A stretch of DNA of 45,545 nucleotides from Pseudomonadota bacterium (GCA_023391905.1 JAEWAD010000382.1:1-45545); one strand, 5' to 3'; numbered from the stretch's first letter, positions 40,985 to 45,545 are shown. The notes: generated by a model not told the origin, from the sequence alone. Numbers and translations are program-made.

Positions 40985-42589
40985 TCACCCATGCGCCGGC
41001 TTGGCGCCCGACTTGATCAGCTTGTAGATGATCGAGTCGTGCAGCGCCTCGAACGAGGCGTCGACCACGTTTTCCGATACGCCGATCGTCATCCAGCTCT
41101 CGCCGGCGCCGTCGCGCGTCTCGATCAGGACGCGGGTGACCGCCTCGGTGCCGCCATTCAGGATGCGGACCTTGTAGTCGATCAGCTCGAGGTCCGAGAT
41201 GATATCCTGGTAGACGCCGAGGTCCTTGCGCAGCGCGCGGTCGAGCGCGTTGACGGGGCCATTGCCCTCCTCGACGGTCAGCAATCGGGCGCCGCCGACG
41301 ATGAGCTTCACAACGGCCTCCGAGACCGAGATCTGCTTGCCGACCGCGTTGAAGCGGCGCTCGACGGTGACGTGGAAGCTCTCGACGGTGAAATAGTCCG
41401 GGACGCTGCCGAGCGTGCGGCGAGCCAGGAGCTCGAAGGACGCGTCGGCGCCCTCGTAGGAATACCCGACCGCCTCACGCTCCTTGACCTCGGCCAGCAA
41501 CGCGTCGAGCCGGCGATCGGCCTTGTCGACCGTGATGCCGAGGCGCGACAGCTCGGCCAGCAGGTTGGAGCGGCCGGCCTGGTCGGAGACGAGCACGCGG
41601 CGGTGATTGCCGACCAGCTCCGGCTTCACATGCTCGTAGGTGCTGGGATCCTTGACGATCGCCGAAGCATGGATGCCGGCCTTGGTCGCGAAGGCGGAAG
41701 CGCCGACATAAGGCGCCTGCCGGTTGGGGGCGCGGTTGACGATCTCGTCGAAGCGATGCGACAGCGCGGTAAGCCCCTTCAGGCCCTCGGCCGTGACGCC
41801 GATCTCGAAGCGGTCCGCATAGGCCGGCTTCAGCATCAGCGTCGGGATGATCGAGGTCAGGTTGGCGTTGCCGCAGCGCTCGCCGATGCCGTTCAGCGTG
41901 CCCTGGATCTGGCGCGCGCCGCCTCGGACGGCGGCCAGCGAATTGGCGACCGCCTGCTCGGTGTCGTTGTGCGCATGCACGCCGAGATGATCGCCGGGGA
42001 TCGTCTTCGCGACCTCGCGGACGATCGCCTCGACTTCCTCCGGCAGCGTGCCGCCATTGGTCTCGCAGAGCACGACCCAGCGCGCGCCGGCGTCATAGGC
42101 GGCCTTGGCGCAGGCCAGCGCATAGGTCGGGTTCGCCTTGTAGCCGTCAAAGAAGTGCTCGCAATCGACGAGCGCTTCCTTGCCGGCCTTCACGGCGGCC
42201 TCGACCGACTGGCGGATGCCCTCGAGGTTTTCCTCCTCGGTCGCCCCGAGCGCCACCTTGACCTGGTAGTCCCAGCTCTTGGCGACGAAGCAGATCGCGT
42301 CCGAGGCCGAGGCGAGCAGCGTGTTGATGCCGGGATCGTTGGAGAGGCTGACCCCTGCCCGCTTGGTCATGCCGAAGGCGGTGAACTTCGCCCGGTTCGT
42401 CCGCTTCTCGGTGAAGAAGCGGGTGTCGGTCGGATTGGCGCCAGGATAGCCGCCCTCGACATAGTCGACACCGAGCTGGTCGAGCAGCCCGGCGATCAGC
42501 ACCTTGTCCTCGACCGAGAAGTCGACGCCGTTCGTCTGGGCCCCGTCGCGCAGGGTCGTATCGAAGAGGTAAAGTCGCTCTTTCGTCAT
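40985..42589 (-). CDS. cimA: Citramalate synthase
   Basis: DTTLRDGAQ, EGGYPGANP, KSWD.QV, DCEHFFDG, HAHND, GERCGN, GNGPVNALD, LIDYKVRIL; CimA-type rather than LeuA-type motifs. Confidence 0.9.
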   Translation of the reverse strand: MTKERLYLFDTTLRDGAQTNGVDFSVEDKVLIAGLLDQLGVDYVEGGYPGANPTDTRFFTEKRTNRAKFTAFGMTKRAGVSLSNDPGINTLLASASDAICFVAKSWDYQVKVALGATEEENLEGIRQSVEAAVKAGKEALVDCEHFFDGYKANPTYALACAKAAYDAGARWVVLCETNGGTLPEEVEAIVREVAKTIPGDHLGVHAHNDTEQAVANSLAAVRGGARQIQGTLNGIGERCGNANLTSIIPTLMLKPAYADRFEIGVTAEGLKGLTALSHRFDEIVNRAPNRQAPYVGASAFATKAGIHASAIVKDPSTYEHVKPELVGNHRRVLVSDQAGRSNLLAELSRLGITVDKADRRLDALLAEVKEREAVGYSYEGADASFELLARRTLGSVPDYFTVESFHVTVERRFNAVGKQISVSEAVVKLIVGGARLLTVEEGNGPVNALDRALRKDLGVYQDIISDLELIDYKVRILNGGTEAVTRVLIETRDGAGESWMTIGVSENVVDASFEALHDSIIYKLIKSGAKPAHG

Positions 42590-42798
42590 TCTGCGTCTTC
42601 TTCCGGTGCGGCCTTGCGATCCCAGGTCGTCCAGAACTCGCCGGTGACCTCGTCCTTGCCGTCGATGATGACCAGCCCCATCGCGTCGAGCTGCTTGCGG
42701 ATCGCGTCGGCCTTGGCGAAGTCCTTGGCCTCGCGCGCCGCAATGCGGTCGGCGATCAACTGTTCGATCAGGTCTTCGTCGAGCGGAATGCTGGTCAT
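42586..42798 (-). CDS. Stand-alone CysRS C-terminal (anticodon-binding-like) domain protein, 70 aa
   Basis: 28/53 identities, ungapped, to the C-terminus of the adjacent CysRS; stop overlaps the cimA start (ATGA). Confidence 0.82.
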   Translation of the reverse strand: MTSIPLDEDLIEQLIADRIAAREAKDFAKADAIRKQLDAMGLVIIDGKDEVTGEFWTTWDRKAAPEEDAE

Positions 42799-42918
42799 CG
42801 TGGTGTCTTTCTGTTGGCAGCGCGCTTCAACGCGCGCGTGAACTCTGGCGCGGGGCAGTGGGGCGGTCGCGACGAACGAGGCGGCCTGAAGCTGTGTCGA
42901 CAACAACACCCTCCCCCC

Positions 42919-43029
42919 TCATCCCTGCGAAAGCAGGGATCCATTCAGCGGGAGCCTTGGGTATTGAAGTCACTACCTTGCCAACCTCGATGAACCCAGC
43001 GGCATGGATCCCTGCTTTCGCAGGGATGA
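42919..43029. repeat. Palindromic miniature element with perfect 26-bp terminal inverted repeats (RPE/dRS3-like)
   Basis: TCATCCCTGCGAAAGCAGGGATCCAT (42919-42944) and its exact reverse complement (43004-43029); each arm is itself a hairpin. Confidence 0.88.
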
Positions 43030-43098
43030 CGGCGAGCGTGGTGCCGGCGCCGGAGCCAACCGCAACGGCGTCGGAAAAGGCAGAGACGACGACCGCCC

Positions 43099-44604
<1,506 letters not shown>

Positions 44605-44611
44605 TGATCGA

Positions 44612-44691
44612 TCCCGATGAACAAAAGCCCGCCGGCCGGGGCGTTCGTCTCTATCGGAATGGAACAGAGGAACGGCCTCAGCCAGCGCGTG
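44612..44691 (-). promoter_or_regulatory. Putative attenuator RNA between the leader ORF and cysS
   Basis: Alternative pairings: AACGGC/GCCGUU; CGUUCCUCU/AGAG..GAACG; UUCCGAU..GAACGCCC/GGGC-UUUU-GUUC-AUCGGGA covering the cysS SD-like GGGA. Confidence 0.55.
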
Positions 44692-44748
44692 CTAGCCGGT
44701 AATAATCCCGCAGCAGTAAATGCCGTTGAAACGCGGAAAAGCCGTCAT
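44692..44748 (-). CDS. Putative leader peptide MTAFPRFNGIYCCGIITG (Cys/Ile-rich)
   Basis: ATG...ATT TAC TGC TGC GGG ATT ATT ACC GGC TAG, ending 87 nt upstream of cysS; too short for the ORF track. Confidence 0.68.
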   Translation of the reverse strand: MTAFPRFNGIYCCGIITG

Positions 44749-44754
44749 GCGAGC

Positions 44755-44783
44755 GTGATGACGGAATTCGGCCGTAGCGTCAA
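44755..44783 (-). promoter_or_regulatory. Candidate sigma70 promoter for a leaderless leader-peptide transcript
   Basis: TTGACG-17 nt-CATCAC-6 nt-ATG; good -35, weak -10, no SD before the ATG. Confidence 0.4.
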
Positions 44784-44955
44784 GGCGGGAAGATGGCGGC
44801 GGCGCGCCGATACGGTGACCAAACCGCTAAGATCGGGACAATTTTAATCAATTCGCAAGAATTCCGAACGATATCTGAACGCAGGTTTCAGGTCGGGTTC
44901 AGCTGTGGGGGCGCAGGATCCCGCCATCGATTTGGGCCTTTTGGAGTACCGCGTC

Positions 44956-45138
44956 ATGGCCACTCGTTCGTTCTTCGCCGTCACCTTCTTTGCCACACTC
45001 GTCGGCATCGGCCTCGCCGAGCTCGTCCAGCGCCCGTCCCATTCGGAAATCCGCGACGCCCGCGCTTCAGCCGTCAGCCTGTGCATGACCAAGGGCATCG
45101 CCTGCGGTGCGACACGTTCGGGCTACGCCGCTTTCTGA
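44956..45138 (+). CDS. Small hypothetical membrane-anchored/secreted protein (60 aa)
   Basis: GGAG RBS, ATG at 44956, N-terminal hydrophobic helix, two Cys near the C-terminus. Confidence 0.6.
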   Translation: MATRSFFAVTFFATLVGIGLAELVQRPSHSEIRDARASAVSLCMTKGIACGATRSGYAAF

Positions 45139-45230
45139 TACCGCTTCGCTCGCGTCGCCTGCTCTGATCGGTTAGGACGGTTCACGGCAGCGGAAGCAGC
45201 CGTCAACTCGAATAATCCGCAGGCAGGGTC

Positions 45231-45545
45231 ATGACCGAAAACAGCACGGTGGGCGCCGATCTCGACGAGAGCGCGCTTTTCTTTCATCGCTTCCCGCAGC
45301 CGGGAAAGCTGGAGATCCGGGCGACCAAGCCGCTCGGCAATCAGCGCGATCTGGCACTCGCCTATTCTCCGGGCGTCGCCGCCCCCTGCCTCGCCATTGA
45401 AGCCGACCCCGCCAAGGCCTTCGACTACACGTCGCGGGGCAATCTGGTCGCCGTCATCTCGAACGGAACCGCCGTGCTCGGCCTCGGTGCCATCGGCGCC
45501 CTCGCCTCGAAGCCGGTGATGGAAGGCAAGGCCGTCCTCTTCAAG
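45231..45545 (+). CDS. maeB: NAD(P)-dependent malic enzyme, N-terminal part (runs off the window)
   Basis: Manual translation: [66 protein letters not shown]. Confidence 0.93.

Follow-up and report, generated by a model that had tools for sequence, protein, structure and literature searches.

A probable isoleucine- and cysteine-sensing leader-peptide attenuator upstream of cysS and cimA

The window analysed here, a stretch of 45,545 nucleotides from a bacterium of the Pseudomonadota (GCA_023391905.1, JAEWAD010000382.1:1-45545), carries on its minus strand cysS, encoding the cysteine-tRNA ligase, followed by cimA, encoding citramalate synthase. A reading made earlier from the sequence alone (the sequence-only reading) had proposed that a short open reading frame (ORF) upstream of cysS acts as a leader-peptide attenuator that senses both cysteine (Cys) and isoleucine (Ile). 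The comparative analysis supports this idea, in that the ORF, its promoter geometry, its codons and the proposed 2:3 hairpin are conserved and Ile codons accompany cimA. We conclude that the element is probably a ribosome-mediated leader-peptide attenuator with two inputs, Ile and Cys.

The leader ORF, MTAFPRFNGIYCCGIITG followed by a stop, lies at 44692..44748 on the minus strand; it has 18 codons, is unannotated and is probably leaderless. After its ATG (44748) the frame reads ACG GCT TTT CCG CGT TTC AAC GGC ATT TAC TGC TGC GGG ATT ATT ACC GGC TAG, with Ile codons at 44719-44721 and 44701-44706 and Cys codons at 44710-44715, the latter being a tandem UGC UGC at codons 12-13. All three Ile codons are ATT, a triplet absent from cysS (24 ATC, 0 ATT) and from cimA (26 ATC, 0 ATT) in the window, so that the codon bias remarked on earlier, ATT in the leader and ATC in the genes, is borne out. 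On recount, the positions previously given for the ORF, TTGACG (44783-44778), AACGGC (44727-44722), GCCGTT (44676-44671), AGAG..GAACG (44652-44642), UUCCGAU (44659-44653), AUCGGGA (44618-44612) and the cysS ATG (44604) all proved right. The downstream genes are likewise those that had been named: cysS (43099..44604, minus strand) matches TIGR00435 with 388.7 bits (cutoff 340) and cimA (40985..42589, minus strand) matches TIGR00977 with 619 bits (cutoff 450).

Conservation was assessed at 110 cysS loci, from 30 relatives and 80 more genomes of the window's order. The 80 genomes represent approximately one per genus from the roughly 150 best-scoring places (385 genomes matched) together with ten lower-scoring ones, and since they were drawn mostly from the best-scoring places the sample leans towards cysteinyl-tRNA synthetases (CysRS) nearer to that of the window. 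A short Ile/Cys-rich ATG ORF ending 40-260 nt upstream of cysS was present at 97 of the 110 loci, which is the conservation that the sequence-only reading had asked to see, and no such ORF was found at the other 13 (L026-L029, L045, L061, L063, L070, L078, L094, L100, L103 and L104). When the same picker was applied to the reverse complement of the upstream regions, it returned no Ile+Cys ORF and two Cys-only ORFs in 110; because the leader recurs at the same place before cysS and this control is near zero, its occurrence goes beyond chance. As this first pick relied on Ile/Cys composition, the search was redone on promoter geometry alone (TTGAC with an ATG 30-39 nt further on). A short ORF was found in this way at 89 of the 110 loci; 83 of these loci have a spacing of 35-37 nt, and all 89 ORFs are the ones already picked by composition.

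Ile makes up 25.4% and Cys 10.2% of the codons in the 79 leaders with cimA downstream, compared with 4.5% and 1.3% in cysS. The Ile codons of these leaders are ATT 211 times, ATC 114 times and ATA 3 times, against 166, 1237 and 29 in cysS. The leaders carry 1-3 Cys and 3-7 Ile codons; a single Cys is present in 33 of the 79 and none in one, and the tandem Cys of the window is not general across the order. Both amino acids are confined to the last 10 codons, with background levels beyond position -10 from the stop. Among the 78 distinct peptides, Ile occupies position -3 in all 78 (ATT 71, ATC 7) and position -4 in 78%, whereas position -2 is Cys in 42% and Ile in 22%, and position -1 is an NGC codon (Gly 35, Ser 21, Arg 13). 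The synonymous alternation of ATT and ATC at -3 suggests that what is selected is decoding by tRNA-Ile. The last codon appears to be fixed at the level of the RNA and not of the peptide, since NGC is what pairing in a hairpin around the stop codon (P1, described below) requires. Leader length varies from 13 to 21 codons and changes by whole codons, the frame staying open.

An invariant Ile at -3 and a frequent one at -4 could also be expected if the peptide itself were active, either as an arrest peptide whose C-terminal I-(I/C)-x-stop stalls the ribosome on a ligand or as a trans-acting product like Sinorhizobium peTrpL, and a trans-acting leader peptide does exist in the same order, as far as the consulted part of its source describes it (PMC7298713). 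However, the remainder of the peptide is unconserved over its 13-21 codons, the last residue varies between Gly, Ser and Arg just as an RNA-fixed NGC would, and genera differ in how many Ile and Cys codons they have and where, as codon counting predicts. We therefore regard an active peptide as quite unlikely.

The codon content of the leader follows the gene that lies downstream. Leaders were assigned to classes by a fixed rule, with two loci (L039 and L080) corrected individually. For Ile+Cys leaders, cimA lies downstream on the same strand in 77 cases and in none is it known to be elsewhere, three contigs ending too early; for Cys-only leaders the corresponding numbers are 0, 11 and 0, and where no leader was called they are 9, 10 and 0. 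The Cys-only leaders, which have 0-1 Ile and 2-4 Cys codons, all come from one part of the window's genus, in which cimA is found 60-120 kb away together with a small ORF resembling the C-terminal anticodon-binding domain of CysRS (CysS_C). In three of these genomes (G011, G012 and G014) the relocated cimA and CysS_C ORF sit behind a homologous neighbour, a pattern that suggests one relocation event; in the CysS tree the species with a relocated cimA are not resolved as one clade (support 90/65). No Ile-only leader was seen ahead of the relocated CysS_C ORF-cimA pair in the same three genomes. Eighteen of the 40 Cys codons in the Cys-only leaders (L013-L022) are TGT, compared with 2 of 77 in cysS; this use of a rare TGT parallels that of the rare ATT in the Ile+Cys leaders.

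These data bear on the view that the leader is a Cys-only attenuator of cysS. On that view cimA would have its own control and the Ile codons would have no sensing role, serving for instance as an AU-rich spacer without structure. Such a view has precedents in the Cys-codon upstream ORFs (uORFs) published before cysS (PMC8632094; PMC4007540, in the portions of these papers drawn on here), and it would accommodate the terminator-like site and inverted repeat between cysS and cimA in the window as well as the five Cys-only candidates with cimA downstream outside the order, all of which are taken up below. On the other side, Ile is more constant than Cys, being present at -3 in 78/78 peptides, and the use of both ATT and ATC there indicates that the amino acid or its tRNA is selected and not the bases. 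Moreover, where cimA has moved away, no more than one or two Ile codons are left and the Cys codons have risen from 2 to 3-4. We consider a Cys-only device unlikely and retain the two-input reading.

The earlier suggestion that the leader governs cysS and cimA together thus holds in so far as the Ile codons go with a downstream cimA, whereas the reach of the leader to cimA in the window itself is uncertain, given a dispersed repeat and a weak terminator-like site between the two genes (see below). Within the order, 86 of the 110 loci have the two genes adjacent on the same strand; in other orders of the class (L120-L179), 36 of 60 families do. Candidate leaders in these 60 families comprise four of the Ile+Cys type, all with cimA downstream, and seven of the Cys-only type. 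Because most of the pairs in other orders have no recognisable leader ORF, the cysS-cimA pair is taken to be older and more widespread than the leader.

We then considered where transcription may begin. A -35 box, TTGACG, is located at 44778..44783 (minus strand), and TTGAC is found at the same spacing in most loci of the order. Seventeen nucleotides past it and 6 nt ahead of the ATG lies a -10-like CATCAC (44755..44760, minus strand), a box that is conserved as CATCAC/GATCAC within the window's genus and whose role is suggested only by this spacing. With a spacing of 6 + 17 + 6 + about 7 nt, transcription would be expected to start at the A of the leader ATG. A Shine-Dalgarno-like 4-mer precedes the leader ATG at 5 of 97 loci, compared with 63 of 97 for cysS. 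From the promoter geometry and this scarcity we infer, on good grounds, that the leader mRNA is probably leaderless. RNA-library contigs in Logan include sequences identical to the window from two libraries, X14 (44571-44809) and X13 (44483-44633 and 44625-44775), at a depth of 2-3; these bridge the leader and the cysS start, and at such low depth uncovered stretches are uninformative. The leaderless start proposed by the sequence-only reading therefore fits the promoter geometry and the near absence of Shine-Dalgarno sequences and fits less well with the contigs, which reach upstream of the ATG.

The paucity of Shine-Dalgarno sequences (5/97 loci) could alternatively mean that the ORF is not translated at all; the conserved helices would then be those of a small RNA or of an element working through RNA alone, for example a riboswitch or a leader bound by a protein or a tRNA. 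This is highly improbable, as the ATG is held at a fixed distance from the -35 box (83/89 at 35-37 nt), the frame stays open through whole-codon changes in length, Ile codons vary synonymously, the codon content tracks the downstream gene and no Rfam family matched the leader. The Rfam search of window positions 43000-45545 at E-values up to 10, T-box models (specifier loop and T-box sequence) included, gave no match, and at 16 related loci (E-values up to 1) it gave nothing at the leader, the only hit being a thiamine pyrophosphate riboswitch (RF00059, 66.7 bits) at L143 948-1048 on the minus strand, near cysS in a genome of another order.

For the RNA structure, 82 leaders were aligned with MAFFT, no structure being fitted. 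RNAalifold on this alignment gave just four pairs of one helix (helix A), so the helices were specified by hand and then counted; shuffle controls ignore relatedness, whereas controls in which the partner strand is slid along do not. The first helix, P1, is a hairpin GGCUAGC-ACGC-GCUGGCU at 44679..44697 (minus strand, -10.2 kcal/mol) that holds the UAG stop codon inside its stem. Across the alignment, 84.2% of P1 cells (GCUAGC/GCUGGC) are paired as against 15-46% for slid partners, and the 23 double changes exceed the 7.2 of shuffled alignments, a number reached in 0 of 500 shuffles. The second structure, a long 2:3 hairpin at 44630..44688 (minus strand, -31.8 kcal/mol), is the proposed ON-state structure and consists in the window of helix A (GCUGGC/GCCGGC), helix B (GGCCGUUC/GAACGCC) and helix C (CUCU/AGAG). 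For helices A (GCUGGC/GCCAGC in the alignment) and B together, 79.2% of cells are paired, compared with 24-45% for slid partners, and 55 double changes are seen, compared with 29.9 in shuffles, again reached by 0 of 500. P1 and helix A are mutually exclusive because both use the same GCUGGC. Thus, the 2:3 pairing anticipated from the window is conserved and covaries across the order, and two conserved helices that had not been anticipated, the stop-codon hairpin GGCUAGC/GCUGGCU and the competing helix A GCUGGC/GCCGGC, join it.

The 5' strand of helix B can in turn pair with nt 1-12 of the ORF, a stretch that contains the AUG; in 76 of the 82 leaders the duplex begins inside that stretch. In the window the 5'-terminal region 1 (UGACGGCUUUU, 44737..44747, minus strand) pairs with region 2 (GAGGCCGUU) at -12.5 kcal/mol. 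With their own partners the 82 leaders average -12.58 kcal/mol; shuffling the ORFs brings this to -9.67 (sd 0.24) and permuting the partners to -10.92 (sd 0.20). The pairing clearly covaries, for example as GAAAACCG/CGGUUUUC in one family. Since this pairing and region 3 both use region 2, they compete. Covarying stems, which the sequence-only reading had proposed to look for, are therefore found for P1, for helices A and B and for the 5' end with region 2. Its own candidate for region 1, a second copy of AACGGC at codons 8-9 (44722..44727, minus strand, -9.6 kcal/mol), does pair with GCCGUU in the window; this copy is specific to the window's clade, and the order-wide partner of region 2 is the 5' end, nt 2-12.

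Finally, a 3:4 structure at 44606..44665 (minus strand, -23.2 kcal/mol), formed by UUCCGAU..GAACGCCC and GGGC-UUUU-GUUC-AUCGGGA, is the proposed OFF state and in the predicted fold covers the Shine-Dalgarno-like GGGA (44612-44615) of cysS. The unconstrained minimum free energy (MFE) fold of the whole leader in the window comprises P1, the 1:2 pairing and the 3:4 structure, that is, the proposed OFF fold. Of the features by which attenuators are recognised, the leaders thus show codon enrichment, in their Ile/Cys content, and mutually exclusive helices, in P1 versus helix A and in the 5' end versus region 3.

Taken together, these features suggest the following mechanism. Transcription would start at or beside the A of the leader ATG, and a ribosome would translate the 18-codon ORF. 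When Ile-tRNA and Cys-tRNA are both plentiful, the ribosome would reach the UAG and leave, P1 would form and the 5' end would pair with region 2; region 3 would then be free to enter the 3:4 structure, with its weak GC hairpin and U-run, and the Shine-Dalgarno sequence of cysS would be covered, corresponding to the OFF state. Under a shortage of charged tRNA-Ile or charged tRNA-Cys, the ribosome would be expected to stall on the Ile or Cys codons among the last ten and to cover the 5' strand of P1, such that GCUGGC could pair with GCCGGC and the long 2:3 hairpin could zip. This hairpin would disrupt the terminator or sequestor, and cysS, plus cimA where it is co-transcribed, would be expressed in what we presume to be the ON state. 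The Cys codons would read out the substrate of CysRS and the Ile codons the product of the CimA pathway. The layout would be that of a classical four-region switch with one addition, namely Ile/Cys codons near the stop, so that stalling would hide the 5' strand of P1. That the choice of helix depends on ribosome position is itself deduced from this arrangement.

The output step could take several forms. In the window, a weak terminator-like core, GCCCC-GGCCG-GCGGGC followed by UUUUGUUC, is found at 44619..44642 (minus strand), and the window's clade has both a GC stem plus UUUUGUU and the 3:4 helix that buries GGGA. Across the 82 leaders, the median distance between the 3' end of helix A and the cysS start is 25 nt. 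That distance, together with the presence of a U-run in only 14 of 82 leaders, would suit the same sensor with an output that is purely translational or Rho-dependent instead of intrinsic termination. In the sources as excerpted here, unmasking of the ribosome-binding site (RBS) is described for mycobacterial leaderless polycysteine short ORFs (sORFs; 10.1101/834739) and Rho is proposed for actinobacterial Cys leaders (PMC1262725). The small predicted changes in RBS accessibility, and the GC stem plus UUUUGUU of the window's own clade, argue the other way. We regard a purely translational or Rho-dependent output as a serious possibility, if somewhat short of an even one; translation control, weak intrinsic termination and Rho are all possible. 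The 3:4 output envisaged in the sequence-only reading is retained as a fold, since the structure burying GGGA lies within the MFE, while its terminator is weak and the predicted unmasking of the RBS is small.

Several observations weigh against the two-input attenuator or against parts of it. A terminator scan of the window left the leader unflagged, the core having only -7.4 kcal/mol, and a U-run follows helix A in just the 14 of 82 leaders mentioned above. In equilibrium models, RBS accessibility rises from 0.398 to 0.459 with a stalled ribosome (an increase at 57 of 87 loci) and from 0.445 to 0.486 with region 3 sequestered (42 rise and 19 fall, n=77), and the MFE of the whole leader is unexceptional (z -0.82). 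A ribosome stalled at codons 10-16 of the window's ORF would not reach back over region 1, so that the exclusion of region 1 would have to be steric or kinetic. The X13 and X14 contigs extend 27 and 61 nt, respectively, upstream of the leader ATG, which is weak evidence for some longer, non-leaderless transcripts or for DNA carry-over. The association of Ile codons with cimA reflects shared ancestry and essentially one relocation, a single natural experiment to which no statistic applies, and outside the order the link is not clear, with five Cys-only candidates having cimA downstream and two lacking it. Lastly, in this genome the cysS-cimA operon may be interrupted by a 37-nt inverted repeat (42916-42952 and 42996-43032, 89% complementary), located between cysS and the small CysS_C ORF, and by a weak terminator-like site (43098-43084). 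The genome has 18 copies of an 18-mer of the repeat, spread over 16 contigs, and the repeat looks like a dispersed element resembling repetitive extragenic palindromes or miniature inverted-repeat transposable elements.

To gauge how widely the element occurs, a covariance model (R1) was searched against 151 evenly drawn genomes of the order and matched 83 of them (57 of 95 genera), with one match in 81 of the 83; its match in the window is at 44608-44703. For the matches with listed cysS coordinates, 42/42 precede cysS by at most 180 nt and are on its strand; many of these 42 genomes are in the R1 seed, and the 41 other matched genomes are outside the seed and have no listed cysS coordinates. 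The figure of 83/151 is a lower bound because R1 misses divergent versions, such as those of a family with GGUGGC. Among 150 genomes from outside the order R1 matched two; each match precedes cysS, and the leaders there read MKTIAAQCRCICTIIIS and MARSFNHCCLIITG; the class tallies include one genome, G445, that has no R1 match. A DNA motif scan of named genomes returned at least 120 stretches; among the matches listed, 100 of 120 have cysS less than 400 nt downstream, and in these 100 cimA is downstream in 74, the sequence ends in 25 and cimA was not seen in one, a metagenome-assembled genome of Tardiphaga. The other 20 listed stretches are mostly chance matches in other phyla. Named carriers among the matches listed include Bradyrhizobium, Rhodopseudomonas pseudopalustris, Nitrobacter, Rhodoplanes, Stappia, Roseibium and Amorphus. 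When the window's own genome was scanned for short ORFs of the form TTGAC-N29-32-ATG that contain amino-acid runs, the cysS leader alone was convincing; two others are antisense within genes.

Leader peptides that count several amino acids are known from the E. coli thr (Thr and Ile) and ilvGMEDA (Ile, Leu and Val) operons, and the pheST leader controls an operon for an aminoacyl-tRNA synthetase. The thr and ilvGMEDA leaders count amino acids of one pathway and combine a Shine-Dalgarno sequence with a strong intrinsic terminator, whereas in the window Cys and Ile come from unrelated pathways and only the cysS-cimA pair links these two inputs. A survey by Lopatovskaya et al. 2010 reportedly covers attenuation of aminoacyl-tRNA synthetase operons and could include this leader. 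Our search of the full-text literature, with subscription papers and supplements outside its scope, found neither an Ile+Cys leader nor a leader of a cysS-cimA operon; the principle of the leader peptide is known, and the Ile+Cys version is apparently undescribed. The sequence-only reading, which knew of no Cys+Ile leader, was right to that extent, although Cys leaders for cysS had already been published (PMC8632094, PMC4007540).

The comparisons with published systems that follow hold for the parts of the cited sources consulted. The closest is the uORFC-8-2 motif of Rhodobacterales, a Cys-codon uORF before cysS for which ribosome-mediated attenuation was proposed (Brewer et al. 2021, PMC8632094). 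Both are AUG uORFs with Cys codons directly upstream of cysS in Alphaproteobacteria, and the tandem UGC UGC falls at codons 12-13 in the window and at about 14-15 in uORFC-8-2. The latter is set apart by its description as exclusive to Rhodobacterales and Cys only, with two stems and a U-run always present (PMC8632094), whereas the element of the window belongs to another order, is dominated by Ile, has the stop-codon hairpin and 5'-end pairing and is followed by a U-run in 14/82 leaders. In Deinococcus deserti, differential RNA sequencing mapped the transcription start of cysS to the AUG of a short Cys leader ORF (de Groot et al. 2014, PMC4007540). It resembles the window in its Cys-containing leader ORF, the start in the window being a predicted one, and differs in having ten codons with two Cys and, as described, neither Ile nor cimA, and in belonging to a different phylum (PMC4007540).

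Cys leaders are also known in Actinobacteria (PMC1262725), and for the mycobacterial polycysteine leaderless sORFs (the 'Cys ribulon') stalling at Cys codons remodels the RNA, with unmasking of the RBS shown experimentally (Canestrari et al., 10.1101/834739). The likeness lies in Cys-codon stalling and RNA remodelling at a sensory sORF with a leaderless start, each of them proposed for the window. The mycobacterial sORFs, however, have poly-Cys tracts and control cysteine metabolic operons (10.1101/834739), whereas the leaders of the window's order have 1-3 Cys plus 3-7 Ile codons and precede an aminoacyl-tRNA synthetase gene and an Ile-pathway gene; the window leader, with two Cys and three Ile codons, has no polycysteine tract as its sole sensor. 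Finally, trpL of Sinorhizobium meliloti, which is in the same order as the named carriers of the motif, is a leaderless ORF at the 5' AUG of its transcript, and its translation was seen by ribosome profiling (PMC10117765). It differs in its Trp codons, its target trpE(G), its proven terminator and its functions in trans (PMC10117765). The predicted leaderless start in the window agrees with the mapped starts of D. deserti cysS (PMC4007540) and S. meliloti trpL (PMC10117765).

The neighbourhood holds some further features. The small CysS_C ORF of the window (42586..42801, possibly from 42909, minus strand; PF23493, 29.7 bits) has a stop that overlaps the cimA start; in the genus this ORF stands between cysS and cimA or moves along with the relocated cimA, and most genomes of the genus have additional paralogous CysS_C copies elsewhere. 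In many species of the genus (L010-L022), the CysRS alignment is split into two segments (about 1-425 and 447-501) within open frames of 545-680 aa, which suggests a variable insertion ahead of the C-terminal domain. One TGA had been flagged inside cysS in four genomes; tblastn, run on two of the four, did not show it. The leader occupies a divergent intergenic region, its upstream neighbours being on the opposite strand: a 60-codon ORF (MATRSFFAVTFFATLVGIGLAEL..., 44956-45135, plus strand) that has no Pfam match, begins with a hydrophobic, signal-like segment and has its upstream sequence in the same intergenic stretch as the leader promoter, and the N-terminus of a malic enzyme (PF00390, 45231-45545, on the strand opposite to the leader).

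A broader statement can be made tentatively, as one that may well hold and that we would put a little below an even chance: the order would share a leaderless two-input attenuator in which the last 3-5 codons decide, concealment of the stop-codon hairpin leads to a long anti-sequestor helix, the 5'-terminal AUG provides the competing strand and intrinsic terminators are largely dispensed with, coupling tRNA-Cys charging to the citramalate route to Ile and explaining the adjacency of cysS and cimA in many Alphaproteobacteria. The leader ORF is an unannotated and probably translated regulatory gene ahead of an essential aminoacyl-tRNA synthetase in a large order. It would be a rare case of one leader peptide that counts the codons of two metabolically unrelated amino acids. 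Its Ile codons would provide sequence-level evidence that the cell treats CimA as an isoleucine-controlled enzyme, and the leader may offer a reason for the widespread pairing of cysS with cimA.

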